DNA of 40,000 nt. Origin: Halobellus limi (GTDB lineage: Archaea; Halobacteriota; Halobacteria; Halobacteriales; Haloferacaceae). A program made the translations under genes and the position numbers. Shown piece after piece: positions 5,116 through 28,190 of this stretch (positions within the stretch are counted from its first letter, which is position 1; every line of letters starts with the position of its first letter). The DNA is taken from positions 2,371,355 to 2,411,354 of the forward strand of contig NZ_CP031311.1 in NCBI RefSeq assembly GCF_004799685.1, in the 5' to 3' direction. The notes beneath the pieces are model-generated. The model saw only the letters and a program-made list of their open reading frames with translations. It was not told where the DNA came from and ran no database searches.

Positions 5116-5568
5116 TCACAGTCGGGCTGTACCGATCGCGACAGCGTCGGTGCCTCGTCCGGATGGCTCGGCTTCGGGATCACCTCCGGAGGGCTCGGCC
5201 TCAGGGCCACCTCCGGATGGCCCGATTTCGGAATCACGTCCGGACACCGCGGTGTCGAGGTCGCGGAGGATCGCGCGCGCCCGACGTCCCCGCCGTGCCA
5301 CCTGCTCGTGGCCGCAGCGTTCCGCCGTCGTGACCGCGTCCCCGAGCGTCGCGAGTCGGCCGTCGAGCAGAAACGCCGACGCGGCCGCCGCACACGAGAC
5401 GGCCCGCTCGGCGTCTTCGACGACCGCTCGGAGACGCTCGGGGTCGTGGCGGGCGCTCGCGGGGTCGGGCGACGGTCCGCGCGGTGCGGATCCCTCGGCG
5501 AGCGCTCGGAGCGAGCGGCGGACCGATTCGGGGGACGGTTCGGAGGCGGCGGACTGACAGTCGGTCAC
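5116..5568 (-). CDS. Hypothetical protein (150 aa, GTG start) between the wHTH gene and mre11
   Basis: G/C at most third codon positions and an acidic composition, whereas the opposite-strand ORF 5036..5557 is S/R/A-rich. I recognise no domain. The C-terminus contains the PSGG(G/D)PEAE repeat. Confidence 0.6.
   Translation of the reverse strand: MTDCQSAASEPSPESVRRSLRALAEGSAPRGPSPDPASARHDPERLRAVVEDAERAVSCAAAASAFLLDGRLATLGDAVTTAERCGHEQVARRGRRARAILRDLDTAVSGRDSEIGPSGGGPEAEPSGGDPEAEPSGRGTDAVAIGTARL
5158..5245. repeat. 27-bp tandem repeat, about 3.2 copies, in frame within the 150-aa ORF
   Basis: Units at 5158-5184, 5185-5211 and 5212-5238 (tccgga(t/g)ggc(t/c)cg...cacc) plus a partial fourth unit. 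They encode GPSGGGPEAEPSGGDPEAEPSG. Confidence 0.8.
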
Positions 5569-5629
5569 GGCGGCAGTGGTCCCGCCATCGTACTTGAACC
5601 TCGGGGCGCGGAGCGACCGCGGGACGTCC

Positions 5630-16759: not shown

Positions 16760-19700
16760 CTATTCGCGCGGACACGCCCCCGTCGGCGTGACACAGCGCG
16801 GTCCCGGCGACGGATCGCTCCACGCGACGGACCGCTCGTCGGTGTTGCCGTCGGTGTCGCCGACGCCGAACTTTCCGGGCGGCACGACCGCGATGGCGAC
16901 CGTTCGCACGCTGAACTGCACCCGCCTGCTCCGCCCCAGCGACTCCGCGACGCCGTCTCCGTCGACGTCGAGGTCGGCTTCGGAACCGTCGCGGACGTAC
17001 GTCGTCTCGCCGCCCTCGACGCCGACGGCGAAGCGGCCGTACGCGCCGCGGGACTCGACGATCCAGAGGTTCGCCGTGGCGACCCACGGGCTGAGCGTCG
17101 GCGAGATCGGGAGGCCGGCCGGGATCGCGCCGACGGTGCCGTTCGTCGCACGGGAGATTCCCTCTTCGGTGGCGCGCTCGGCGGCGTCGGTCGCCTCCCG
17201 CTCGACGAACTCCCGCGTCGAGGAGACGGCGTCGTCGACGGCAGATTCGGGGACGCGAACGCGCTCGGACGTCGCGACGCGCCGGAGATCGACCCGAAGC
17301 GCGACCCGAATTCGATCCCGGGCGACCGGCGAGGAACCGTCCCGTCCGTCCGACCGCGCCTCGACCGCGACGGCGGCCACCTCGCGGGCCAGCGACCCGT
17401 CGGTGGCCGCGACCGCGCGCTCGCCGGGACCGTCGAAACGGGCGAACGAGCGGTCGACGATCCGTCTGCGCTGGTTCCGATCCAGCGACGTCTCCCGGGC
17501 GAGCGTCCGCGTCGCCGCCGCGCGGACGTCCCCCATCGAGCCCTCGACCTTCGTTTCCAGGACGTCCCGGCGGGCTTCGAGCGTCTCGTCGGGGTGCGTT
17601 TCGAGCGTCCGGTCGGCGGCGACGAGCGCCTGGCCGGCCGTGTGTAGCGACACGCGTCCGGGGTCGCCGAACAGCGTCCGCGTGACGAGGTCCGCGGCGT
17701 CGCCGTAGGGGACGCTGAAGACGTTCACGTTCCTGACCGCGAGGCCGACGTACCGTTCCCCGTCGGCGACGCCATCGACGAGCGTCCCCTCGACGGGGTC
17801 GGGCGCGAGGTAGGCGGGGTCGCCGTCGGGGATCAGCGTCGTCTCGCCGCGAGCGCCCTCGGATCCGCCGAAGTCGGTCCGCGGCGACGGCGCGTCCGGC
17901 GTGAGCTTCGCGAGGTCGTTCACCCGCGAGGCGGCGAGTCCCCTCGCGTCGAGCGCGCGGTCGATGCCGGCGTTCTGCGCGCGCGTTCGTCCGGCGCGCG
18001 CGTCGAGACCGGCGAGTACCTGATCGAGGTACGCGGCGCGAGCGGCCACGCGGGTCCGGTCGGCGACGCCGTCGTACCGGTTCGGGGCGTCGACGAGTTC
18101 CGCGCGCCGGTCGCGAACGAGCGCGGCCAGGCGCGCCGCACCGTTGGCGTGACCGGTCGCCGCGTCGCTGGCCTCTACTTCGATCGAGAGGTCGCGAACG
18201 CGGCCGCGGAGGTCGGCGACGTCGGCGTAGACCCAGGGTTCGAGGTCGGCGGGGCGGTCACCGGTGATCGTTCGCGACGCGCTCGTCCGGCCGCCGGTCA
18301 CGGCCCTGCGAGCGACGGTGTCGGGGCCGCCGAGGTCCGAGACGAGCGTTCGACTCACTTCTCCCGCCTCCTGCAGGTTCGGCCCGCCGAGCGCGCCGCC
18401 GGATTCGAACAGCGGTCGGACGGGTCGCGTCGGTGCCGCGCTCCCGGGGAGTCGGCCGGTGCCCGTGATCCGAACGCGGTGGACGTCGCGCCACGACGCG
18501 GTCGTCGTCCGCGGCGTCTCGTTGACCTTCACCCACGTCCGCTCGACCCGCCACCGCTCGGTGACGCGTCTGGTCGCCGAGTAGAGCCGTCGCTCTTCGG
18601 TCCCGGTTCGGGAGACCGAACGCGTGCTCCCGCCGCCGCTCACGGAGACATCCTTCGAGACATCGGAGAACACGAGCGTCCAGTTCTCACCCGGCGCGCG
18701 CGGCGAGGGGCGGCGCTCGTTTCTGATCGCCCGAGTGCTGGCCCGAACCGAGACGCTCGCCCGATACCCGTCGCGCCGGATCGAATCGAGGCTCGCTGCC
18801 CCGCTCGCTCCCCGGAGGAGTTCCAGGAACGCCTCGTCGGCCGTCCCGTTGACGCCCACCGAGACGGTTTTCGTCGCCGGGAGCGCGCCGGACTCGGGCG
18901 TTTCATCCGAACGCTCGGCCGCGTTCGGGTCCGGGAGTTCACCGGTGACCGCGGAGACGACGTGGCCGTCGGCGTACGGGTCGAGGACGTCGGTCACGCC
19001 GGTCCGAAGCGTCGCCGCGCGGACGCCGGCAGCCGCGTCGGGGTCGCTCCGTCCGAAAGCGGCCCGCTGAGCGTCGAGCAGTCCGGCGTTCGTCGAGAGC
19101 GCGACGTGGCGGTTCGCGACGACGTTCGAGATCGGCAGCCCGCCGTACTGGCCGAGCCCGCGGGCCTGCGCCATCGCCGTGACGCCCACCGTCGTGCGGC
19201 GGGCGAGCCCCGGCGCCTCGATCGGCCCGGCGTCGAGTCGCTTCTGGAACGCGTCCGTTCGGTCGTGGAGCGCCAAGGCGGGGACGCCGACCGTGACCGT
19301 CCGGTCCACCCGACGCGCGTCGAGCGGCCGGCCGTCCCGTTCCACGGTCAGTTCGAGGTCGTAGAGCGTGACCCGGAGTTCGGTCCCGTCGTCGACGCCC
19401 GCGATCGAGACGCGATCGATCGCTTCGGACGCGCTCTCGACCGACTCGCCGAACGACGCGCGGGCCACGCTCGCTCCGCGTCGGTGTTCGACGGGGACCA
19501 TCGCCTCGCGCGCGGCGAGGAAGATCCGAAGTCGGAGATAGCGGCGGAAGGTGTCCGGGCCGTCGAGTGCGCGTCCGGCCTCGGTGTCGGCCGCGACCGT
19601 GACCGGATCGCGCGCGGCGGCCCTCGCGGCGTCGCGAGCGGCGACTCTGAGCGCGGCGGTCGCCTCGGCGTCGACGCGGTCGGCGGCGACGTCGGCCGAG

Positions 19701-19822
19701 CGGTCAACGGGCGCGACCCCCGGCGTCGCGAGCGACACCGCGAACGTCGAACTGGCGACGAGGAGCAGCACGCCCACCAGCGCGAACGGGACCCGGCCGC
19801 GGTCGTCCTCCGCGAGCCGCAT
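16760..19822 (-). CDS. Large (1020 aa) uncharacterised extracellular/anchored protein, last gene of the type-IV-filament-like block
   Basis: Start set at the ATG at 19822, which overlaps the upstream TAA by 1 nt (TAATG). The N-terminus MRLAEDDRGRVPFALVGVLLLVASS resembles an archaeal class III (prepilin-like) signal, D-R-[GA]-x-x-P followed by a hydrophobic helix. I recognise no other domain. There are two Cys near the C-terminus. Confidence 0.8.
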   Translation of the reverse strand: MRLAEDDRGRVPFALVGVLLLVASSTFAVSLATPGVAPVDRSADVAADRVDAEATAALRVAARDAARAAARDPVTVAADTEAGRALDGPDTFRRYLRLRIFLAAREAMVPVEHRRGASVARASFGESVESASEAIDRVSIAGVDDGTELRVTLYDLELTVERDGRPLDARRVDRTVTVGVPALALHDRTDAFQKRLDAGPIEAPGLARRTTVGVTAMAQARGLGQYGGLPISNVVANRHVALSTNAGLLDAQRAAFGRSDPDAAAGVRAATLRTGVTDVLDPYADGHVVSAVTGELPDPNAAERSDETPESGALPATKTVSVGVNGTADEAFLELLRGASGAASLDSIRRDGYRASVSVRASTRAIRNERRPSPRAPGENWTLVFSDVSKDVSVSGGGSTRSVSRTGTEERRLYSATRRVTERWRVERTWVKVNETPRTTTASWRDVHRVRITGTGRLPGSAAPTRPVRPLFESGGALGGPNLQEAGEVSRTLVSDLGGPDTVARRAVTGGRTSASRTITGDRPADLEPWVYADVADLRGRVRDLSIEVEASDAATGHANGAARLAALVRDRRAELVDAPNRYDGVADRTRVAARAAYLDQVLAGLDARAGRTRAQNAGIDRALDARGLAASRVNDLAKLTPDAPSPRTDFGGSEGARGETTLIPDGDPAYLAPDPVEGTLVDGVADGERYVGLAVRNVNVFSVPYGDAADLVTRTLFGDPGRVSLHTAGQALVAADRTLETHPDETLEARRDVLETKVEGSMGDVRAAATRTLARETSLDRNQRRRIVDRSFARFDGPGERAVAATDGSLAREVAAVAVEARSDGRDGSSPVARDRIRVALRVDLRRVATSERVRVPESAVDDAVSSTREFVEREATDAAERATEEGISRATNGTVGAIPAGLPISPTLSPWVATANLWIVESRGAYGRFAVGVEGGETTYVRDGSEADLDVDGDGVAESLGRSRRVQFSVRTVAIAVVPPGKFGVGDTDGNTDERSVAWSDPSPGPRCVTPTGACPRE

Positions 19823-20766
19823 TATCGAGCCTCCGACGTCGGAGACTGCGGTCCCGCCGGAGACGGCGACCACGTCCGGACGACGATTCTGACGGACGAA
19901 ACCGAGACGGCCTCGGCGGCGGCCGCCGGGGCGTCGTACCGGGCGCGCAGATCCTCGGTGAATCGCGGGGCGAGCGCGGCCGCGATCCGCTCGTTCGCCG
20001 CCTCGGTGTCCTCGGTGGCGAGCGGCTCCGCGAGGGACGCGTTGGTCTCCGTTTCGAGGCGGGCGTATCGGTGACGGACCAGCGCGGCGGCCGGGTCGTC
20101 GCCGCGGAGCGTGATGCGAGCGGGGCCCGCGGGGACGAGCACGGCAACGGTCCGCTCGGCGACGGCCGCACCCAGGGAATCGAAGTCTCTCGCCGCCGAC
20201 GCGGGAATCGAGTCGACGCCCGTGGGGACGACGAGCGTCGCGGCGTGAACGCCGTCGGCCGGCGGCTCCGGACCGACGCCGACCGCGCCGCCGACGGGTG
20301 CGCCGGGGTAGGGCTGCCAGGTGGCGTCCACGCGAACGGACGAGCCGGTTCGTGCCCGAACCGCGTCCTCGACGCCGTTTCGGAACGACGCGCGGGTGCG
20401 CGTGAGCGGCGGGACGGCGGCGGGACCGGCCGTCGCGTTCGCGTCGACCGTCGCCGCCGAGTCGATCCCGCTCGTCGTCGTCGCCGCGCGGGCGAGCAAT
20501 CCGGCGAGGCTGCCGTGGGCCGTCCGGTCCAGTTCCGGCGAGTCGAGTGCGATATCGGGAGCGTCGGAGGTCGTCTCGTTCGCGGCCATCCCGCGCACGC
20601 CGGGGGCGAGCGAGTAGTCGACCTGCGCCGTCGTCGTCGCGAGGGCGTCCGCGACCGCGTCGGCCTCGCCGGCCGTCGCGGGCGGGGACTGCTCGACCGT
20701 GACGAGACCGACGACGGCCGCCGAGACGAGGAGTAAGAAGACGACCGCGTCGATGGCGACGTTCAT
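19822..20766 (-). CDS. Uncharacterised N-terminally anchored protein (314 aa)
   Basis: N-terminus MNVAIDAVVFLLLVSAAVVGLVTV, a TM helix directly at the start. The rest is A/T/D-rich and looks soluble. Its stop overlaps the next start. Confidence 0.75.
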   Translation of the reverse strand: MNVAIDAVVFLLLVSAAVVGLVTVEQSPPATAGEADAVADALATTTAQVDYSLAPGVRGMAANETTSDAPDIALDSPELDRTAHGSLAGLLARAATTTSGIDSAATVDANATAGPAAVPPLTRTRASFRNGVEDAVRARTGSSVRVDATWQPYPGAPVGGAVGVGPEPPADGVHAATLVVPTGVDSIPASAARDFDSLGAAVAERTVAVLVPAGPARITLRGDDPAAALVRHRYARLETETNASLAEPLATEDTEAANERIAAALAPRFTEDLRARYDAPAAAAEAVSVSSVRIVVRTWSPSPAGPQSPTSEAR

Positions 20767-20797
20767 CGCCGCACTCCGACGTCGATCGCTCTCCGGT

Positions 20798-21256
20798 TCA
20801 TCGCCACACCCAGACGTCGAGCGTTCCCCAGACGACGTCTCCGTCTCCCGTCGCGACGCTCACCGGACGCTCGGCGTGGTTGACGGGGACGCCCGAAGAC
20901 GCCGGCGGGTGACGCCGGTTCGTCCACGTTCCCGTCGGCGTCGTCACCGCGACCGCGACGCGGTAGCCGTCGGGGACAGCCGGTCCCGCGCTCGGCAGGC
21001 CGACGGGCGAGACCACGCCGCCCTCGCTGACGTCGTCGTACACCCGTTCGAGCGTCGGCTCGGCCAGCGCGTTCTCCGTCTCGTCTGGCGTCACGGCGCC
21101 CAGGGTCGTGGCGTACAGCGAGAGGCCGGTACAGACGGCAAAGAGCGCGATCAGGGCGACGACGGGAGTCGTCTGCGCCCGTGAGGTACCGTCGTCGATC
21201 CGGCAGCGAGCGACGGCGCGCCGCCCGGCGGACTCACGCGTCGACGAGGACGACAT
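20798..21256 (-). CDS. Pilin-like small protein with a class III-type signal motif (start uncertain)
   Basis: The segment ...SRAQTTPVVALIALFAVCTGL matches [KR]-[GA]-Q followed by a hydrophobic helix, as in archaeal prepilins/archaellins. The ATG at 21256 overlaps the upstream gene by 23 nt. Confidence 0.7.
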   Translation of the reverse strand: MSSSSTRESAGRRAVARCRIDDGTSRAQTTPVVALIALFAVCTGLSLYATTLGAVTPDETENALAEPTLERVYDDVSEGGVVSPVGLPSAGPAVPDGYRVAVAVTTPTGTWTNRRHPPASSGVPVNHAERPVSVATGDGDVVWGTLDVWVWR

Positions 21257-21713
21257 TCACTCCCTCCCAGGAGAGGCGGCGGACGATCAGCGTGCGGTCC
21301 ACGGTGCGCCAGGGGGCGTCGCTCGCGTCCGCCCGGGCGTCGACGACGGCCTGCCTGAACGCCTCCGGCGAGTCGAAGGCTCGTTCGGGGGGCGTCCCGT
21401 AGAGGACGTCGCGCAACGGCGATCCCTCGGTCGGAACGGGCGTGACCGGCCCGAACGACAGCGTCGCGTGCGCCGTTCCCGAGTCGGACCGGAGCCCGAT
21501 CCGGCGCGTCCCGAGTCTGATCTCGTCGGCGTCGAGCGGGTGTTCGCCGGTGGCCGCGTACTCCGCGGCGGCGACCCGATCGACCGTCGCCCCGGCGGCC
21601 CCCGCGTCCGGCGGCGGTGCCGTCGGAAGCCCGGCCGCCGCGCCGACGAGCGCGACGCCCGCGAGCGACAGTCCGATCCAGCCGTACCACGCGTCCACCG
21701 TGAGTTCGAACAT
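21234..21713 (-). CDS. Uncharacterised N-terminally anchored protein (159 aa), first gene of the distal sub-operon
   Basis: N-terminus MFELTVDAWYGWIGLSLAGVALVGAAAGL. A TATA box lies 22 nt upstream of the ATG, implying a leaderless mRNA. Confidence 0.75.
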   Translation of the reverse strand: MFELTVDAWYGWIGLSLAGVALVGAAAGLPTAPPPDAGAAGATVDRVAAAEYAATGEHPLDADEIRLGTRRIGLRSDSGTAHATLSFGPVTPVPTEGSPLRDVLYGTPPERAFDSPEAFRQAVVDARADASDAPWRTVDRTLIVRRLSWEGVNVVLVDA

Positions 21714-21743
21714 AGCCCCCCTGGTCCCGCCTCCGTATATAAA
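21714..21743 (-). promoter_or_regulatory. Leaderless promoter P1: TTTATATA-N6-CGGGACCA-N8-ATG
   Basis: Minus strand reads tttatata cggagg cgggacca ggggggct ATG. The TATA box is at 21736-21743, with exactly 22 nt to the ATG at 21713. Confidence 0.65.
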
Positions 21744-21785
21744 GGCTCGTCCCGGAATCGTCGAGGAACGGCCGTCAAATCCACC

Positions 21786-23546
21786 TCAGAACAGCATCGA
21801 CGCGCCCAGGAACGCGACGAGATACGTCGCCGTCGCCGCGAGGAGTGCCAGGCCGATCCGGTAGCCGACGAGCGTCCGATCGAGACCGCGGTCCAGCCCC
21901 GTCGCCACCGCCGTGAGGACGGCCGCGAGCGCGAGGACGTACACCCCGACGGCCGTCCCGAGCGTCGACGGGGAGAGCGTCGCCGCCCCCGGGGCGGCCG
22001 ATCCCGCGAGGGAGGCGCTCTCGGCCGCCGTCGCCCCCGACGCGGCCATCTGGGTGGCCATCGCGACGGTCGCGCCGCCGACGAGCGGGCCGAAGAGCGC
22101 CGCCGTGTGGCTCAGCGTCCCCGTGATCGCCGCGAGTTCGCGTCGCGCCTCGTCCTCGACGCGTCGGAGTTCGGTGAGGTGATCCGCCAGACGCGTGAGC
22201 GTGTCGCCGGCCGGCCGACCCTCCTCGGCGGCGACCGCGAGCAGCGACGCGGTGGCGCGACCCCGGCGGCTCGGGAGGTGTCTGAGCGCGCCGTACTCGC
22301 CGAGGAAGGCGCGGTACACGCCGACGCGGAGTCGACGCTGGACGCCCGAGGCCGACTCGAACAGCTCGCTGGTTCGCCCGGTCGTCGCTGTCGCGGCCGA
22401 TCCGATCGCCGACTCGACCGACTCGCCGGCGCCGACGCGGCGCCCGACGACCGCCGTCGCGTCCGCGAGTCCGCGCTCCGCCTCGTCGACCCCCCGTCGG
22501 ACCGCGGCCATCGGGCGGAAGTGGACCGTAAGCGCCGCGCCGGTCCCCGCGCCGACGGCACCGACGGGGGCCGCCCAGGCGGCGACGGCCGATCCGACCG
22601 CGAATCCGCAGACGGCTCCCACCACGCCCGCCGCGAGCGCCCGCGTCGGGCCGGACGGGACGTCGGGGTGGGCGGCCGTCACGCGGGGTGGCGCGAGCGC
22701 GATGGGGCGTCTGAGGAGGAGCCACGCGCCGGCACCGATCAGGCCGGCCGGGAGCAGGACGTCGTAGAGGACGACGAAGGCGGACGCGGGAACGGTTACG
22801 CCGCCGGCGCGCGCGGCGGGCAACACGCCGACGAGCGCCAGCGGGAGGAGGACGCCGAACGCGTAGATGCCGCTCGCCGGGCCGCGAACGTCGCCCGCGA
22901 ACTCGGCCATCTCGGTGCGCGCGCCGTCGAGAACCGTTTCCAGCGCGCGGTCGAGCGCCGCGTCGCGCTCGTCCGGCGGTGCCTCGACGGCGGCCGACAG
23001 GAGCGCGACGGACCGTTCGAGCGCGGGGAACCAGGGCCGCCACTCCGCGGCGAAGGCGTCGAGGCCGGCGGTCGGTCCCGACCGGGTCCGTTCGGCGTGC
23101 GCGCCGAGGCTTCGAGCGAGCGGTCCCGTCCCCGTCCGTGCGGCGAACGCCGCGGCGCGCTCGGGAGTCGCTTCGAGGCGGAGACGCAGCGCCGCGCGGG
23201 CGACGAGGCCGGGCGCGTCCCCCAGCGCGCGGGTCCGGCGAAGCGTCGCGGCGGCGACGGGGAGGCGGTGAATCACGTGCGTCGCCCCGAGGCCGATGCC
23301 GGCGGCCGCCGGCATCGACGCCGCGACGGGGAGCCCCGGAAGACCGACGAGGAGGGCACAGAGGGCCAGGACCGCGACGGGGACGGCGGCGACGTAACCC
23401 GCGCGGACGACGGTGTCGGCCCGGAGGTCGCTGTCGAGAAACGCCAGCGAGCGGTGGAGTTCGGCCGTCGACTCGACGTCGTTCGGGTACCAGCGGGCCA
23501 GCGACCGCGCGGTTCGGCGGAGTCGAGTCGCCGTCGACGAGGTCAT
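21786..23546 (-). CDS. PilC/TadC-like polytopic membrane protein (type II secretion system F family)
   Basis: 586 aa from the ATG at 23546, which overlaps the ATPase stop by 1 nt (TGATG). It has multiple hydrophobic helices separated by soluble helical domains. Its position directly after a secretion ATPase is the standard arrangement. Confidence 0.8.
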   Translation of the reverse strand: MTSSTATRLRRTARSLARWYPNDVESTAELHRSLAFLDSDLRADTVVRAGYVAAVPVAVLALCALLVGLPGLPVAASMPAAAGIGLGATHVIHRLPVAAATLRRTRALGDAPGLVARAALRLRLEATPERAAAFAARTGTGPLARSLGAHAERTRSGPTAGLDAFAAEWRPWFPALERSVALLSAAVEAPPDERDAALDRALETVLDGARTEMAEFAGDVRGPASGIYAFGVLLPLALVGVLPAARAGGVTVPASAFVVLYDVLLPAGLIGAGAWLLLRRPIALAPPRVTAAHPDVPSGPTRALAAGVVGAVCGFAVGSAVAAWAAPVGAVGAGTGAALTVHFRPMAAVRRGVDEAERGLADATAVVGRRVGAGESVESAIGSAATATTGRTSELFESASGVQRRLRVGVYRAFLGEYGALRHLPSRRGRATASLLAVAAEEGRPAGDTLTRLADHLTELRRVEDEARRELAAITGTLSHTAALFGPLVGGATVAMATQMAASGATAAESASLAGSAAPGAATLSPSTLGTAVGVYVLALAAVLTAVATGLDRGLDRTLVGYRIGLALLAATATYLVAFLGASMLF

Positions 23547-25756
23547 CAGGGGCCTCCGCGGCGGCCCCGGTCGCACGCGTCGGGTGTCGTCAGCGCGGCC
23601 GTCGCGAGGCGGTCGAACCGACCCGCACGTCGTTCCAGTCTCTCGAGGAGGGCGCCGTAGGACTCGTCGTCCCGACAGGACCGCTCGAACACCGCGCTGT
23701 CGCCCCGTTCGACCGCCCCCGTCGACCGGAGCGCGCCCTCTCGGCGTTCGAAGAGGGGAACGAACGTGGCGTCGTCGCCTGCCGCTCGCACCTCCTCGAC
23801 GGCGGCGACGTACCGGGAGTCGCCGTCGCGCGCGCAGGTCACGACGAGGTCCGTCGCGCCGAAGGAGGACGCCGGGACCCCGAGGTCCGAGACCACGCGC
23901 TCTCGGACCGCGGCCGCGGAGTCGCCGTGGATCGTCCCGAGCACGGCGTGGCCGTGCGCGCCGACGCGCATCGCCTCGTAGAGCGACCCCGCCTCCTCGC
24001 CGCGGACCTCGCCGACGACGAGCGCGCCGTCGCCCAGTCTGAGCGCGGCGCGGAGCGCCGCAGTCGGCGAGAAACCCCCGCGGCCGCAGCCGTTCGGTCC
24101 GTTCCTCCGGTTCCCGCTCGCGCCGCCTCCCGCCCCCGCCCCGACGTCGGTGTGCAGTGCCTGCACGTCGCGGCCGTGTTCCCGAAGCGCGTCGACGGGC
24201 AGTTCCGGCGTGTCCTCGATGCTGACGAGCCGGGTCGCCGCCGGGAGTTCCCAGAGCAGCGCGCCGAGGAGCGTGGTCTTGCCGGCCCCTCGCGTACCGG
24301 CGACGATGGTCGCCGCCCCGCGTTCGACCGCGAGCGAGAGGAACGCCGCGGCCTCGGCGGGGAGCGACCCGACGGAGACGAGGCGGGGCAGCGTCCAGGC
24401 GTCGTCGTCGCGGGCGCGGAACGCGAACCCGACGCCCTCGCTCGCGGGGGCCGTCACGCCGGCGACCCGGATCCGCCGGCCCGTCTCGGCGACGACGGAT
24501 GCGTCGAGCGTGGGCGAACTCCGGGAGAACGCGCGTCCGCTCTCGCGCCGGAACCGCGAGGCGAGCGACGCGGCCCCGTCGGGCGTCAGCCGGACGTTCG
24601 TGGGAAGTCGCTCGCCGTCGACGACGACCCGGACGGGCGTCTCAGTCACCGGCGCCGAGACGACCACGTCGGAGACCCGCTCGTCCGCGAAGAGGTGCTC
24701 GAAGACCCCGAGGCCGTGGGTGTGGCGATCCAGAACCGCGGCGAGCGTCTCCGTCGGATCGTCCGGGTCGGCGACGCGCCGCACGGCGCGCCCGGCCGCC
24801 CGCGCTCCGCCGCCGACCGACCCCTCGGCGAGTACCGCATAGGCCGCCGCGAGCGTGGCAGTCGCGTCGGGTTCGAGATCGTGCGCGACCGGAGAGAGGT
24901 GGTAGACCGCTCCCTCCGACTCCCGGCCGTCGTAGATCCGCGCGGTCGCGCCGGTCGGGAGCGAGGTCGTATCGCGGAGCGAGCGGGCCGGCGGCGGACG
25001 ACGGGAGACCCGGGCCCGGGAGACGACGGGACCGACGAACGCACGGAGCGCGACTTGGTAGGGGTCCGGATCGGGGTCACCGGCTCGGGGCTCCACTGTC
25101 GTGGGGCCGACGGATCGATCCCCGCCGTCCGGAACGCGATCCCAGACGCGGTCGGCTCCCGCGGCGAGCCCGGACTCGGCCGCGATCCGCGCCAGCGCTC
25201 CCGCGCGTCCCGTCGCCCGACGCGCGGCCGCGAGCGGATCCGAGCGGGCGCGGTCGGCCAGCGCCTCGTCGTGGAACCGCGCCCGCTCGGCGAACCGGCC
25301 CGCCGCGAGCAGCAGCCCCACCGCCGCGTCGGCGTAGGTCCGTTCGGTCCCGTCCGATCGCGTTCGGACCGCGTCCACGTCGCGCGCTTCGAGCGACGAG
25401 ACCACCGTCGCCCGGCAGGCCGGACTCGACGCCAGGTCGCCGTCGCCGGGACACGCCGACGCGTCGACGACGAGCTCGTGGCGGTCGGTGATTCCGGTCC
25501 CAGCGGGCTGTTCGACCGTCGGACGGCAGCGACACGCCCCGACGGCGGGTACATCCGTCTCGCTCGTCTCACCCTGGGAATCCCCGCCGGTGGCGAGTCC
25601 GAGCGCGGCGGCGAAACCGGCGACGGAAGACGGGAGATCGGCGATCGCGGCGTCGAAGTCGGTGAACGCGTTCGAGCGGTCGGCGAGCGCGGGGACGGCG
25701 CGCGCGGGCGATTCGTCGGTGTCCGGTTCGAGAGCGCGGTCGGGGGTGCGTGTCAT
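23546..25756 (-). CDS. Type II/IV secretion-system family ATPase (FlaI/PilB/TadA/VirB11-like) with an extended Cys-containing N-terminal region
   Basis: 736 aa from the ATG at 25756 (MTRTPDRAL). Walker A GTRGAGKTT (residues 488-495), Walker B-like ALVVGEVRGEEA, His box GTIHGDS. The 1085-aa track ORF is an upstream read-through. A TATA box lies 22 nt before the ATG at 25756. Confidence 0.88.
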   Translation of the reverse strand: MTRTPDRALEPDTDESPARAVPALADRSNAFTDFDAAIADLPSSVAGFAAALGLATGGDSQGETSETDVPAVGACRCRPTVEQPAGTGITDRHELVVDASACPGDGDLASSPACRATVVSSLEARDVDAVRTRSDGTERTYADAAVGLLLAAGRFAERARFHDEALADRARSDPLAAARRATGRAGALARIAAESGLAAGADRVWDRVPDGGDRSVGPTTVEPRAGDPDPDPYQVALRAFVGPVVSRARVSRRPPPARSLRDTTSLPTGATARIYDGRESEGAVYHLSPVAHDLEPDATATLAAAYAVLAEGSVGGGARAAGRAVRRVADPDDPTETLAAVLDRHTHGLGVFEHLFADERVSDVVVSAPVTETPVRVVVDGERLPTNVRLTPDGAASLASRFRRESGRAFSRSSPTLDASVVAETGRRIRVAGVTAPASEGVGFAFRARDDDAWTLPRLVSVGSLPAEAAAFLSLAVERGAATIVAGTRGAGKTTLLGALLWELPAATRLVSIEDTPELPVDALREHGRDVQALHTDVGAGAGGGASGNRRNGPNGCGRGGFSPTAALRAALRLGDGALVVGEVRGEEAGSLYEAMRVGAHGHAVLGTIHGDSAAAVRERVVSDLGVPASSFGATDLVVTCARDGDSRYVAAVEEVRAAGDDATFVPLFERREGALRSTGAVERGDSAVFERSCRDDESYGALLERLERRAGRFDRLATAALTTPDACDRGRRGGP

Positions 25757-25786
25757 AGCGCCGGTGGTCCCGTCTCGGTATATAAA
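25757..25786 (-). promoter_or_regulatory. Leaderless promoter P2: TTTATATA-N6-CGGGACCA-N8-ATG
   Basis: Minus strand reads tttatata ccgaga cgggacca ccggcgct ATG. The TATA box is at 25779-25786, 22 nt from the ATG. Confidence 0.65.
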
Positions 25787-25860
25787 CCATCGGGCGGAGC
25801 GTCGCCCGCGGGCGGTCGAGGTCGATTCGAGCGCGCGCCGATTCAGTCCCGAGCGCCGGT

Positions 25861-26322
25861 TCAGCCCCGCGTGACGACGAGCGTCGGTCGCCCGCCGTCG
25901 CGGACGAGCGCGACGTCGACCGCGTGCCGACCGGGCGCGGTGAAGACGACGGGTCCGTCGGGCGTGGAGACCGGGATCGGCAGCGAGACGCCGCGGAGAC
26001 GCGTCGGCGAGGTCCCGACCGCGTAGGCGACCACCGAGCGGTTTCCCGGCCCGCCCGGACGACCGCCGACCGCGACGAACGCCGGCCGCGCAGTCGTCAG
26101 CGACGCGTCCGGCGTCCGAAACGCCACGCGACGCGTCGCCGCGTACGCCCGCGTCGGCGTGGCGTCCTCGGAGGTCGCGAGGCTCCGGCCAGCGCGTTCG
26201 ATGCGGTCGATCGAACCCGCCAGGTCTGCGTCGGTCCGCGTCGCACGCGCGTCGTCGACGGCCGGGAGCGCGGCCGAGAGCGTCGCCACCGTCAGGACCG
26301 CGGCGACGACCAGCCTGATCAC
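25861..26322 (-). CDS. Uncharacterised N-terminally anchored/secreted protein (153 aa, GTG start)
   Basis: N-terminus MIRLVVAAVLTVATLSAALPAV. GTGA overlap with the upstream gene (26319-26322). Confidence 0.7.
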   Translation of the reverse strand: MIRLVVAAVLTVATLSAALPAVDDARATRTDADLAGSIDRIERAGRSLATSEDATPTRAYAATRRVAFRTPDASLTTARPAFVAVGGRPGGPGNRSVVAYAVGTSPTRLRGVSLPIPVSTPDGPVVFTAPGRHAVDVALVRDGGRPTLVVTRG

Positions 26323-27029
26323 CGGAACGCGTCGCGGAGTCGCGACGCGAGCGAGCCGTCGCTTCCGGGCGAGTCGGTCCGCGGTTCCGCCGCGTCGGCG
26401 TCTGGGCTGACACCGGTGACCCGGGAGGGATCGCGCTCGTCCCCGGAAGCGGCGTCGCCGCCGTTAGTGAGCGTGGAGCCGACGCCGTCACCGTGGGCGC
26501 GCCCGGAACCGACGCCCCCACGGTGGACGCTTTCGACCCCGACGCCGGGGCTGGGACGGTCGCGGGCGTCGGGAACGCGTCCGGACCGGGAATCGCCGTC
26601 GACGGCCTCTGGGGACGCGGGGTCGTCGGTGGTTGCGGCTGACTCCGTCGGTTCCGTCTCGGAGATCCGCTCGCGGACCAGTCCGCGCTCTCCCCCGTCG
26701 AGCCGCCGTTCGAGCGCCTCGACCTTCGCCAGCGCGATCGACGCGCGGCGTTCGATCGACTCGTCGACGGCGTCGATCCCGTCGAGGAGGCCGCGGACCG
26801 CATCGATCTCGGCCTCGACGGCCGTCAGCCGGCGGTCGAACGCGTCCAGCCGTTCTCCCGTGGCGTCAGAGTGGCCGTCGCTCGGAGCGGCCGCGTCCGT
26901 CGAGCCCTCGGCCGGTTCGTGTTCCACTGTCGCCGCAGGGTCGCGCTCGATCGTCCCCGAAGGGTCGTGCTCGGTCGTCGCCGCAGGATCGTGTTCCGTC
27001 GTCGCGACAGAGTCGTGCTCGGTCGTCAT
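26319..27029 (-). CDS. Coiled-coil protein with an N-terminal TTEHDPAA octapeptide repeat and a disordered acidic/Gly-rich C-terminus
   Basis: 236 aa. Five repeats (TTEHDSVA, TTEHDPAA, TTEHDPSG, TIERDPAA, TVEHEPAE). A heptad-like segment ERLDAFDRRLTAVEAEIDAVRGLLDGIDAVDESIERRASIALAKVEALERRL. A TATA box lies 22 nt upstream of the ATG. Confidence 0.75.
   Translation of the reverse strand: MTTEHDSVATTEHDPAATTEHDPSGTIERDPAATVEHEPAEGSTDAAAPSDGHSDATGERLDAFDRRLTAVEAEIDAVRGLLDGIDAVDESIERRASIALAKVEALERRLDGGERGLVRERISETEPTESAATTDDPASPEAVDGDSRSGRVPDARDRPSPGVGVESVHRGGVGSGRAHGDGVGSTLTNGGDAASGDERDPSRVTGVSPDADAAEPRTDSPGSDGSLASRLRDAFR
26915..27029. repeat. 24-bp in-frame tandem repeat, about 5 units
   Basis: Units at 26915-38, 26939-62, 26963-86 and 26987-27010, plus a partial unit at 27011-29 (g(g/a)tcgtg(c/t)tc(g/c)gtcgtcgc(c/g)(g/a)cag). 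Confidence 0.8.
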
Positions 27030-27059
27030 ACCGCCGGTGGTCCCGTCCCGGGATATAAA
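27030..27059 (-). promoter_or_regulatory. Leaderless promoter P3: TTTATATC-N6-CGGGACCA-N8-ATG. The same AT octamer may serve the divergent cetZ gene.
   Basis: Minus strand reads tttatatc ccggga cgggacca ccggcggt ATG. The TATA box is at 27052-27059. On the plus strand it reads GATATAAA, 45 nt before the cetZ ATG. Confidence 0.6.
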
Positions 27060-27104
27060 CGCTCGGCACCAACGTTCAAGGGCCGCTGCCGCGAGACGTT
27101 AGCT

Positions 27105-28190
27105 ATGAAGTCCGTCCTGATTGGCGTCGGCCAGGCCGGCGGGAAACTCGCCCGCGAACTGGTCGAGTACGACGAGCGGATGGGGTTCGGCGCCGTCCGC
27201 GGCGCGGTGGGCATCAACACCGCGAAGGCAGACCTCCGAGACCTCCCCTTCGAGACCGTCCTCGTCGGCCAGGATCGCGTGAAGGGCCAGGGAGTCGGCG
27301 GCGACAACGAACTGGGTGCGGAAGTGATGCAGGCCGACATCCAGGAGGTCCTCGCGTCGCTCGACGGCCGCGTGACCGCCGGGACCGAGTCGATATTCGT
27401 CGTCGCCGGCCTCGGCGGCGGCACCGGCAGCGGCGGCGCGCCGGTCCTCGCGAAGGAACTCAAGCGCATCTACGACGTTCCCGTCTACGGTCTCGGGATC
27501 CTCCCCGGCCGCGACGAGGGCGCGATGTACCAGGTGAACGCCGGCCGCTCGCTGAAGACCTTCGCCCGCGAGGCCGACTCGCTGCTTCTGGTCGACAACG
27601 ACGCCTTTCGATCGAGCGGCGAGAGCGTGACCGAGGGGTTCGACTCGATCAACCGAGAGATCGCGAAGCGGGTCGGTCTCTTGCTCGCCTCGGGCGAGTC
27701 CGTCGAGGGGGTCGCCGAGAGCGTCGTCGACTCCTCGGAGATCATCAACACCCTCCGAAACGGCGGGATCGCCGCGCTCGGGTACGCGTCCGCGGAGGCC
27801 GCGCCCGAAGCCGAGGACAACATCAACGCGGTGATGAGCACCGCCCGGCGTGCGTTGCTCACGGGATCGAGCCTCCCGGACGCGACCGACGCCGACGCGG
27901 CCCTCCTCGTCGTCGCCGGCGAGCAGGACGCCATTCCGCGGAAGGGCGTCGAGCGCGCCCGCCGCTGGGTGGAAGAGGAGACGGGGAGCCTGCAGGTCCG
28001 CGGCGGCGACTTCCCCCTTTCGAGCGGCCGCCTCGCGACGCTGATCCTCCTCGGCGGGGTCGAGCGCTCCGACAGGCTGGAGGCGTTTATGCAGCGTGCG
28101 AAGGACGCCGAGAAGGAGGACGAAACGACCCCCGAGCGGGCGTCTCCCGGAGAGCAGTGGACGAACGACGAACTCGACGACCTGTTGTAG
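27105..28190 (+). CDS. cetZ: CetZ-type tubulin/FtsZ-superfamily protein
   Basis: 361 aa from the ATG at 27105 (MKSVLIGVGQAGGKLA). Tubulin signature GLGGGTGSGGAPVLA. Overall CetZ-like layout with an acidic C-terminal tail. The upstream 78 codons of the track ORF are R-rich junk. Confidence 0.9.
   Translation: MKSVLIGVGQAGGKLARELVEYDERMGFGAVRGAVGINTAKADLRDLPFETVLVGQDRVKGQGVGGDNELGAEVMQADIQEVLASLDGRVTAGTESIFVVAGLGGGTGSGGAPVLAKELKRIYDVPVYGLGILPGRDEGAMYQVNAGRSLKTFAREADSLLLVDNDAFRSSGESVTEGFDSINREIAKRVGLLLASGESVEGVAESVVDSSEIINTLRNGGIAALGYASAEAAPEAEDNINAVMSTARRALLTGSSLPDATDADAALLVVAGEQDAIPRKGVERARRWVEEETGSLQVRGGDFPLSSGRLATLILLGGVERSDRLEAFMQRAKDAEKEDETTPERASPGEQWTNDELDDLL

Follow-up and report, generated by a model that had tools for sequence, protein, structure and literature searches.

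This study focused on three minus-strand promoters, P1 to P3, in a 40,000-nt stretch of the Halobellus limi genome (NZ_CP031311.1, positions 2,371,355 to 2,411,354; here called the window), each of which carries the 8-nt box CGGGACCA between its TATA box and the ATG of a gene in a type IV pilus-like cluster. The explanation that we favour, with moderate confidence, is that the box is the promoter-proximal part of a composite promoter, is read by one putative factor, and marks a single regulon in Halobacteria. The members of this regulon would be DUF7310-7311, PilB-PilC, DUF7283 to DUF7286, DUF7857, MinD/ParA-like ATPases, DUF7382, one TFB paralogue, and a family of pseudoknotted RNAs of about 83 nt.

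The three sites had been predicted from the letters of the window alone, and their sequence, strand and identical geometry were borne out. All read TTTATAT[AC]-N6-CGGGACCA-N8-ATG, letter for letter, and in each an 8-nt TATA box is followed by 22 nt and then the ATG. At P1, the TATA box TTTATATA (21736..21743, minus strand) lies 22 nt 5' of the ATG of the DUF7283 gene, and the box (21722..21729, minus strand) occupies positions -16 to -9 from this ATG (21711-21713); it is kept class-wide upstream of DUF7283 orthologues. P2 lies upstream of the gene for a PilB-like ATPase (ATG 25754-25756), with its TATA box TTTATATA at 25779..25786 and the box at 25765..25772, and P3 lies upstream of the DUF7310 gene (ATG 27027-27029), with its TATA box TTTATATC at 27052..27059 and the box at 27038..27045, again all on the minus strand. 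The spacers of P2 and P3 are identical at 20 of their 22 positions, one more than the 19 originally counted. The original prediction was right in that all three sites are present but overlooked a fourth, TTCAAGTA-cgatgg-CGGGACCA-ctgccgcc-GTG, found at 5566..5598 (minus strand) by a position weight matrix scan (score 22.1). Its TATA box, TTCAAGTA, is weaker, and it heads a 150-codon frame rich in G+C at third codon positions (5116-5568, minus strand), for which no Pfam family was matched and which lies just upstream of mre11. The first bases of this frame (GTGACCGACTGTCAG) resemble the 3' box of the RNA family described below.

A search of the whole genome (3.75 Mb, 67% G+C) found 110 TTTATAT[AC] sites, 11 of which are paired with CGGGACCA, against about 0.004 expected from composition at offset +6, and all 11 exact pairs are spaced at exactly N6. 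Four of them precede an ATG, these being the three in the window and one upstream of a DUF7382 gene elsewhere (C1:525006-525487, minus strand). The promoter of the latter is almost identical to P1-P3, and its product is a protein of 150 aa with an N-terminal membrane segment and an Ig-like domain; the gene that follows it specifies a large protein without a Pfam family. The other seven exact sites precede a GTG-NNN-stop followed by conserved sequence and, when the pattern was relaxed, were found to belong to an RNA gene family with 51 copies by sequence and 55 by covariance model. The RNA-gene promoters share the architecture GrCGwrsG-TTTATATA-CGAwsr-nGsGrCCA-N8-GTG, and among the 51 of them G-15, C-10 and A-9 are invariant, with C-11 in 50 and G-13 in 48. 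The TATA box occupies -30 to -23 in these promoters and in P1-P3, which fits the spacing expected of leaderless promoters (centre about 26-27 nt upstream). The box itself had been described as an invariant word, but GGCGGCCA and CGCGGCCA are as common as CGGGACCA in the 51 RNA-gene promoters, and RNA genes at syntenic positions in a sister species have a different variant, so that CGGGACCA is one of several interchangeable forms of nGsGrCCA. Further protein genes with a box promoter were detected by the weight-matrix scan, namely those for DUF7857, two MinD/ParA-type ATPases, a TctA-family membrane protein and a NucS-N/zinc-ribbon protein, and one TFB paralogue is also preceded by the relaxed box. 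Altogether, the relaxed box stands at -16 to -9 in front of about 55 RNA genes and of roughly ten protein genes besides. Judged from this distribution of sequences, the promoter class marks a wide regulon and not, as had been proposed, one private to the pilus-like block.

The box is also not a generic promoter feature, a point on which the original prediction had been correct, since tRNA promoters and most strong-TATA leaderless promoters are without it. It was not found in register in any of 57 tRNA upstream regions, and some 33 strong-TATA leaderless promoters (of open reading frames of at least 100 aa) include only about 6 with the box. Box promoters resemble the generic haloarchaeal leaderless promoter (B recognition element (BRE) CGAAA, TATA element TTWT near -27, and a WW element at -10/-11; Brenneis 2007, Babski 2016) in that the TATA box lies at -30 to -23 with a BRE of the CGA type just upstream, and the start codon is placed at the expected transcription start. 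They differ in the added invariant G-N-G-R-C-C-A at -15 to -9, in having C instead of A/T at -10/-11 (-10 is C in 51/51 RNA-gene promoters, and -11 in 50/51), and in being restricted to a defined set of genes. The published genome-wide consensus for Haloferax promoters consists of BRE, TATA and WW at -10 only (PMC4983044). These results bear on an alternative in which the box would be a strong-promoter form of the region that is promoter-proximal or melts first, preferred by the basal machinery (TFB, TFE or RNA polymerase), that raises expression and defines no regulated set. Such a preference would agree with the fixed register to both TATA box and start site, with the lack of a palindrome and with the interchangeable inner positions of the box, and a widely conserved TFB paralogue has the box in its own promoter. 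It sits poorly with the tRNA and strong-TATA promoters that are without the box, with the absence of the box from the Haloferax consensus, and with the functional coherence of the protein-coding members (type IV pilus parts, MinD-like ATPases, DUF7857). We regard it as unlikely.

Conservation of the box at orthologous loci, on which the prediction had been made to depend, was confirmed across the class. In other Halobellus species, the TATA-N22-ATG geometry is kept at all three promoters, with boxes such as CGCGGCCA, CGCGACCA, CGGAACCA and similar. A single copy of DUF7283 is present in 47 of 61 genomes of the taxonomic family and 74 of 101 genomes of the class. In nearly all genomes inspected, among them members of families f1, f4 and f6, its promoter has the form TATA-N6-box-N8/9-ATG, with CGGGACCA being the commonest variant. 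The gene order DUF7310-DUF7311-PilB-PilC-DUF7283 recurs across Halobacteria. Of 15 genomes (four taxonomic families), 11 have a CCA-ending box upstream of PilB and three more have a CGA variant there, DUF7310 has a box-type promoter in most genomes examined, and DUF7857 has a clear one in 13 of 18. The RNA genes of other genera also keep the box promoter. Since the three promoters have been kept together with the order of the cluster across the class, the three-promoter pattern is an ancient property of it. The same class-wide conservation of orthologues makes co-regulation by one factor plausible, as was originally suggested, for a much larger set that is not confined to the three units of the window.

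One of the box-bearing loci outside the window includes a gene for a general transcription factor. The genome encodes seven TFB paralogues, and one of these lies at C1:343074-347316 in the order DUF7857 (plus strand), TFB (minus), DUF7858 (plus) and a MinD-like gene (minus), with DUF7858 divergent from TFB. Box-type promoters precede the DUF7857, MinD-like and TFB genes of this locus. Of 18 genomes, 13 have the four-gene neighbourhood. A CCA-ending box precedes the MinD-like gene in about half of the genomes examined, and DUF7857 follows DUF7283 in its pattern of presence. The TFB promoter has an octamer like the box, matching CGGGACCA at 6 or more of its 8 positions and in register with the TATA box, in 11 of 12 genomes with the pilus-like cluster. 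Among ten genomes without the cluster, the TFB promoter has no box in eight, and the remaining two, incomplete assemblies of one genus, show only a degenerate box. The TFB promoter has thus retained the box in those genomes that have the rest of the regulon, which suggests a reader that co-occurs with the cluster, and loss of the box from this promoter in 8 of 10 genomes lacking the pilus-like system is a further argument against a basal preference.

The region that separates the TATA box from the start is a place at which many archaeal repressors bind. The position of the box there led the original prediction to a repressor site, and the loss of the box at the TFB gene in genomes without the regulon would be compatible with an operator. 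So would the lack of a primary transcription start site (TSS) for the pilB1 operon of Haloferax volcanii under standard growth, among the TSS entries listed, as it fits silent pilus-like loci; box matches among the listed Haloferax entries were out of register. Archaeal repressor operators likewise show one motif common to several units at such a position relative to the TATA box and start. They are usually dyad-symmetric, however, and without an exact register, whereas CGGGACCA and its variants are asymmetric, with neither dyad symmetry nor a repeated half-site (the common part is only G-N-G-R-CCA), are 8 nt in length, and always lie 6 nt from the TATA box. More than 60 promoters have this exact N6 register, which holds throughout the class, and steric occlusion does not require it. 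Also difficult to reconcile with repression are the coupling of the box to near-consensus TATA boxes on multi-copy RNA genes and the fact that no regulator gene was identified. The repressor-site reading could not be upheld on these grounds of symmetry and register, and we consider an operator doubtful.

Returning to the favoured explanation of a composite promoter, its modules would be a CGA-type BRE, a TATA box at -30 to -23, CGA at -22 to -20, nGsGrCCA at -16 to -9, and the start codon at +1 of predicted leaderless transcripts. One sequence-specific factor would read the box, sitting directly downstream of TBP/TFB and at the upstream edge of the melting region. From there it could set the rate of open-complex formation, with the effect that the members are expressed together. 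The direction of control may go either way, and we lean to activation or recruitment over repression. The factor is probably encoded only in genomes that have the pilus-like system. A bolder extension, and on balance an improbable one, is that the box marks an ancient regulon spanning the class, with an archaeal promoter-specificity factor of a new kind, one that couples the pilus-like machine and its MinD/DUF7857/TFB partners to the RNA family. The RNA, expanded to 27-55 copies in this genus, would then be a functional partner and no bystander, be it a regulator, cargo or a ribonucleoprotein component.

The RNA genes form an undescribed family that, on comparative evidence from aligned copies, is structured, with strong covariation support. 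No Rfam match was obtained for seven copies scanned (E up to 1), the sole result being one miRNA match, put down to chance, that lies on the other strand and outside the element. The RNA is about 83 nt long, with a predicted transcript beginning at GUG, and folds into a GC-rich hairpin of 9-10 bp with a 21-nt loop; its 3' end, GYGCCGRCUGUUCGCCA, pairs with the loop to form a pseudoknot. For the copies of this genome, pairing reaches 98% in both helices and 11 pairs have changes on both sides; slid controls pair at 27-48%, and none of 500 shuffles was as good. Across 40 copies from many genera, pairing is 97%, there are 106 double-change cells against 28 in shuffles, and one pseudoknot pair shows all four Watson-Crick types. 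In 50 of 51 copies in this genome, and in 38 of 40 across the many genera, the first 9 nt of the RNA are made up of a start codon, a single sense codon and a stop codon. The frames seen include GUG-AUC-UGA and GUG-ACG-UAG/UAA/UGA, and UGG almost never occurs. A 5' hairpin was considered as the cause of the GUG-NNN-stop and rejected, pairing there being at the shuffled expectation. A role as a 5' leader or riboswitch was likewise rejected, as both neighbours are on the opposite strand in 28 of 51 cases and both on the same strand in only 5 of 51. Examples of the family in this genome, none of them in the window, are found at C1:2063709-2063825, C1:406783-406890 and C2:297550-297669, all on the plus strand.

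Among the 101 genomes of the class that were sampled, the family was detected in 37. Copy number is between 1 and 9 in most genomes, with 27 in two congeners, none in another congener, and 55 here. In the copies of this genome, a variable additional hairpin, GC-rich and of 10-140 nt, separates the first helix from the 3' box. Their syntenic counterparts in congeners (the comparison was with copies of G046 and G106) have the short form of about 83 nt, which indicates that the insert spread within this lineage. Such a range of copy number within one genus (0 to 55), together with the finding that this genome has no counterpart for about half of the G046 copies (G046 being a sister species), could be taken to mean that the RNA gene and its promoter are a mobile cassette, such as a miniature inverted-repeat transposable element or something like the palindrome-associated transposable elements (PATEs), and that the pilus genes captured copies of its promoter. 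This is very improbable. There is no TnpB or other transposase open reading frame upstream of the 14 copies checked, similarity between copies stops upstream at the BRE, and 9 of the 20 G046 copies are syntenic with copies in this genome in flanks that are only about 80% identical. One orthologous position of the RNA is common to three genomes of two genera (G039, G131, G135), and the pilus promoters are kept class-wide at three separate sites with no trace of RNA-gene sequence. The neighbourhood in these three genomes consists of an RtcB RNA ligase, a small membrane protein and the RNA, followed by a convergent gene for a HAD hydrolase and one for an acyl-CoA dehydrogenase. The H-type pseudoknotted small RNAs and IS605-derived PATEs of haloarchaea are similar to this family in being multi-copy, with a GC-rich hairpin and a pseudoknot. 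The family differs in having no Rfam match, no TnpB, its own promoter for each copy, and the two-codon start-stop frame at the 5' end, and PATEs are described with IS605-type near-terminal palindromes. An origin from TnpB omega-RNAs or PATEs was rejected, because no transposase open reading frame lies upstream and the PATE description does not fit.

Several observations weigh against the box being the mark of one regulon with a dedicated reader. The fixed register and non-palindromic site also fit a preference of the basal machinery that involves no dedicated factor, the inner positions of the box drift freely, and in genus g27 the boxes of RNA genes and of pilus genes have changed differently, so that there is no clean co-variation. 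The association between the RNA family and DUF7283, which is present in 35 of 36 RNA-positive genomes (this genome left out) and in 38 of 64 RNA-negative genomes, speaks for a link to the pilus-like system but is suggestive only, these statistics ignoring phylogeny and the RNA model losing sensitivity with evolutionary distance. No box-binding protein was identified among the candidates examined (the TFB paralogue, DUF7858 and CsmR). DUF7858 is without a significant fold match in the PDB, its predicted model being helical (predicted local distance difference test score, pLDDT, 74.8). The orthologue of the TFB paralogue is near-universal in the taxonomic family, including genomes that have no cluster, and is seemingly absent from genome G015, which keeps a box-bearing P1. 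This distribution weakens the case for the adjacent TFB paralogue as a dedicated reader, and indicates that it is a member of the set and not an exclusive or proven reader.

Archaeal promoter-level regulons are poorly charted, and we know of nothing on the control of most haloarchaeal pilus-like loci. The box offers a sharply defined, fixed-register element, kept across a whole class, that is directly testable in Haloferax volcanii. It links genes of unknown function (DUF7283 to DUF7286, DUF7310, DUF7311, DUF7382, DUF7857 and DUF7858) to MinD-like ATPases and a TFB paralogue, and it brings out a widespread structured RNA family, absent from Rfam and with an odd start-stop 5' end; each of these provides a handle on uncharted haloarchaeal biology. 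Among the closest known parallels at the level of regulation is the CsmR regulon of Hfx. volcanii, in which a promoter-proximal motif, TATCA-N4-TGATA beside the TATA box, coordinates surface-filament and cell-shape genes (PMC13286277). That motif is semi-palindromic and its targets are archaellum and chemotaxis genes; CsmR was rejected as the reader of the box because the two motifs are unrelated. At the level of gene content, the cluster is similar to the clade 4 type IV pilus-like systems of Halobacteria (PilB1/PilB2-type loci), which, as treated in the passages of Makarova et al. 2016 (PMC4858521) that concern them, share with it a PilB/PilC module, pilin-like genes, a coiled-coil cytosolic protein, and an association with MinD/FleN and TFIIB. 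The section on regulation in that paper lists MinD/FleN ATPases and TFIIB homologues as regulators associated with type IV pili, and neither this section nor the mentions of Halobacteria and Haloferax were found to include a shared promoter element or an RNA partner. The likeness to the named pil loci of Haloferax is likewise at the level of gene content.

The minus-strand genes driven from P1-P3 were identified by their Pfam families as a haloarchaeal type IV pilus-like cluster, and the ATGs that follow P1, P2 and P3 open real genes, for DUF7283, a PilB-like T2SSE ATPase and DUF7310, respectively. Unit 3, from P3, begins with the DUF7310 gene (26319..27029; PF23991), the translation of which is an acidic, cytosolic coiled-coil protein, followed by the DUF7311 gene (25861..26322; PF23993), which specifies a pilin-like protein with an N-terminal hydrophobic segment; such a segment is also present in DUF7283. 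The P2 unit comprises the PilB-like secretion ATPase (23546..25756; T2SSE, PF00437), with 64-72% identity to orthologues in other Halobellus species, and a PilC/TadC-like membrane protein (21786..23576; T2SSF, PF00482), the start codon of which is uncertain. Unit 1, from P1, spans 16760..21713 and carries DUF7283, DUF7285, DUF7284 and DUF7286 (PF23954, PF23956, PF23955 and PF23957), and all of these genes lie on the minus strand. The cluster has a PilB (T2SSE) gene beside a PilC/TadC (T2SSF) gene, together with pilin-like genes and in conserved order, and so shows the arrangement by which archaeal clade-4 type IV pilus-like systems are recognized. Divergent from P3 is a gene for a CetZ tubulin-like protein (27105..28190, plus strand; Pfam CetZ_C and Tubulin), which bounds the 75-bp spacer that holds P3, and this divergent CetZ start (MKTVLIGVGQAGGK...) is found beside the cluster in most orthologous loci examined. 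A 147-codon open reading frame (27026-27469, minus strand) lies antisense to the CetZ gene and is probably spurious.

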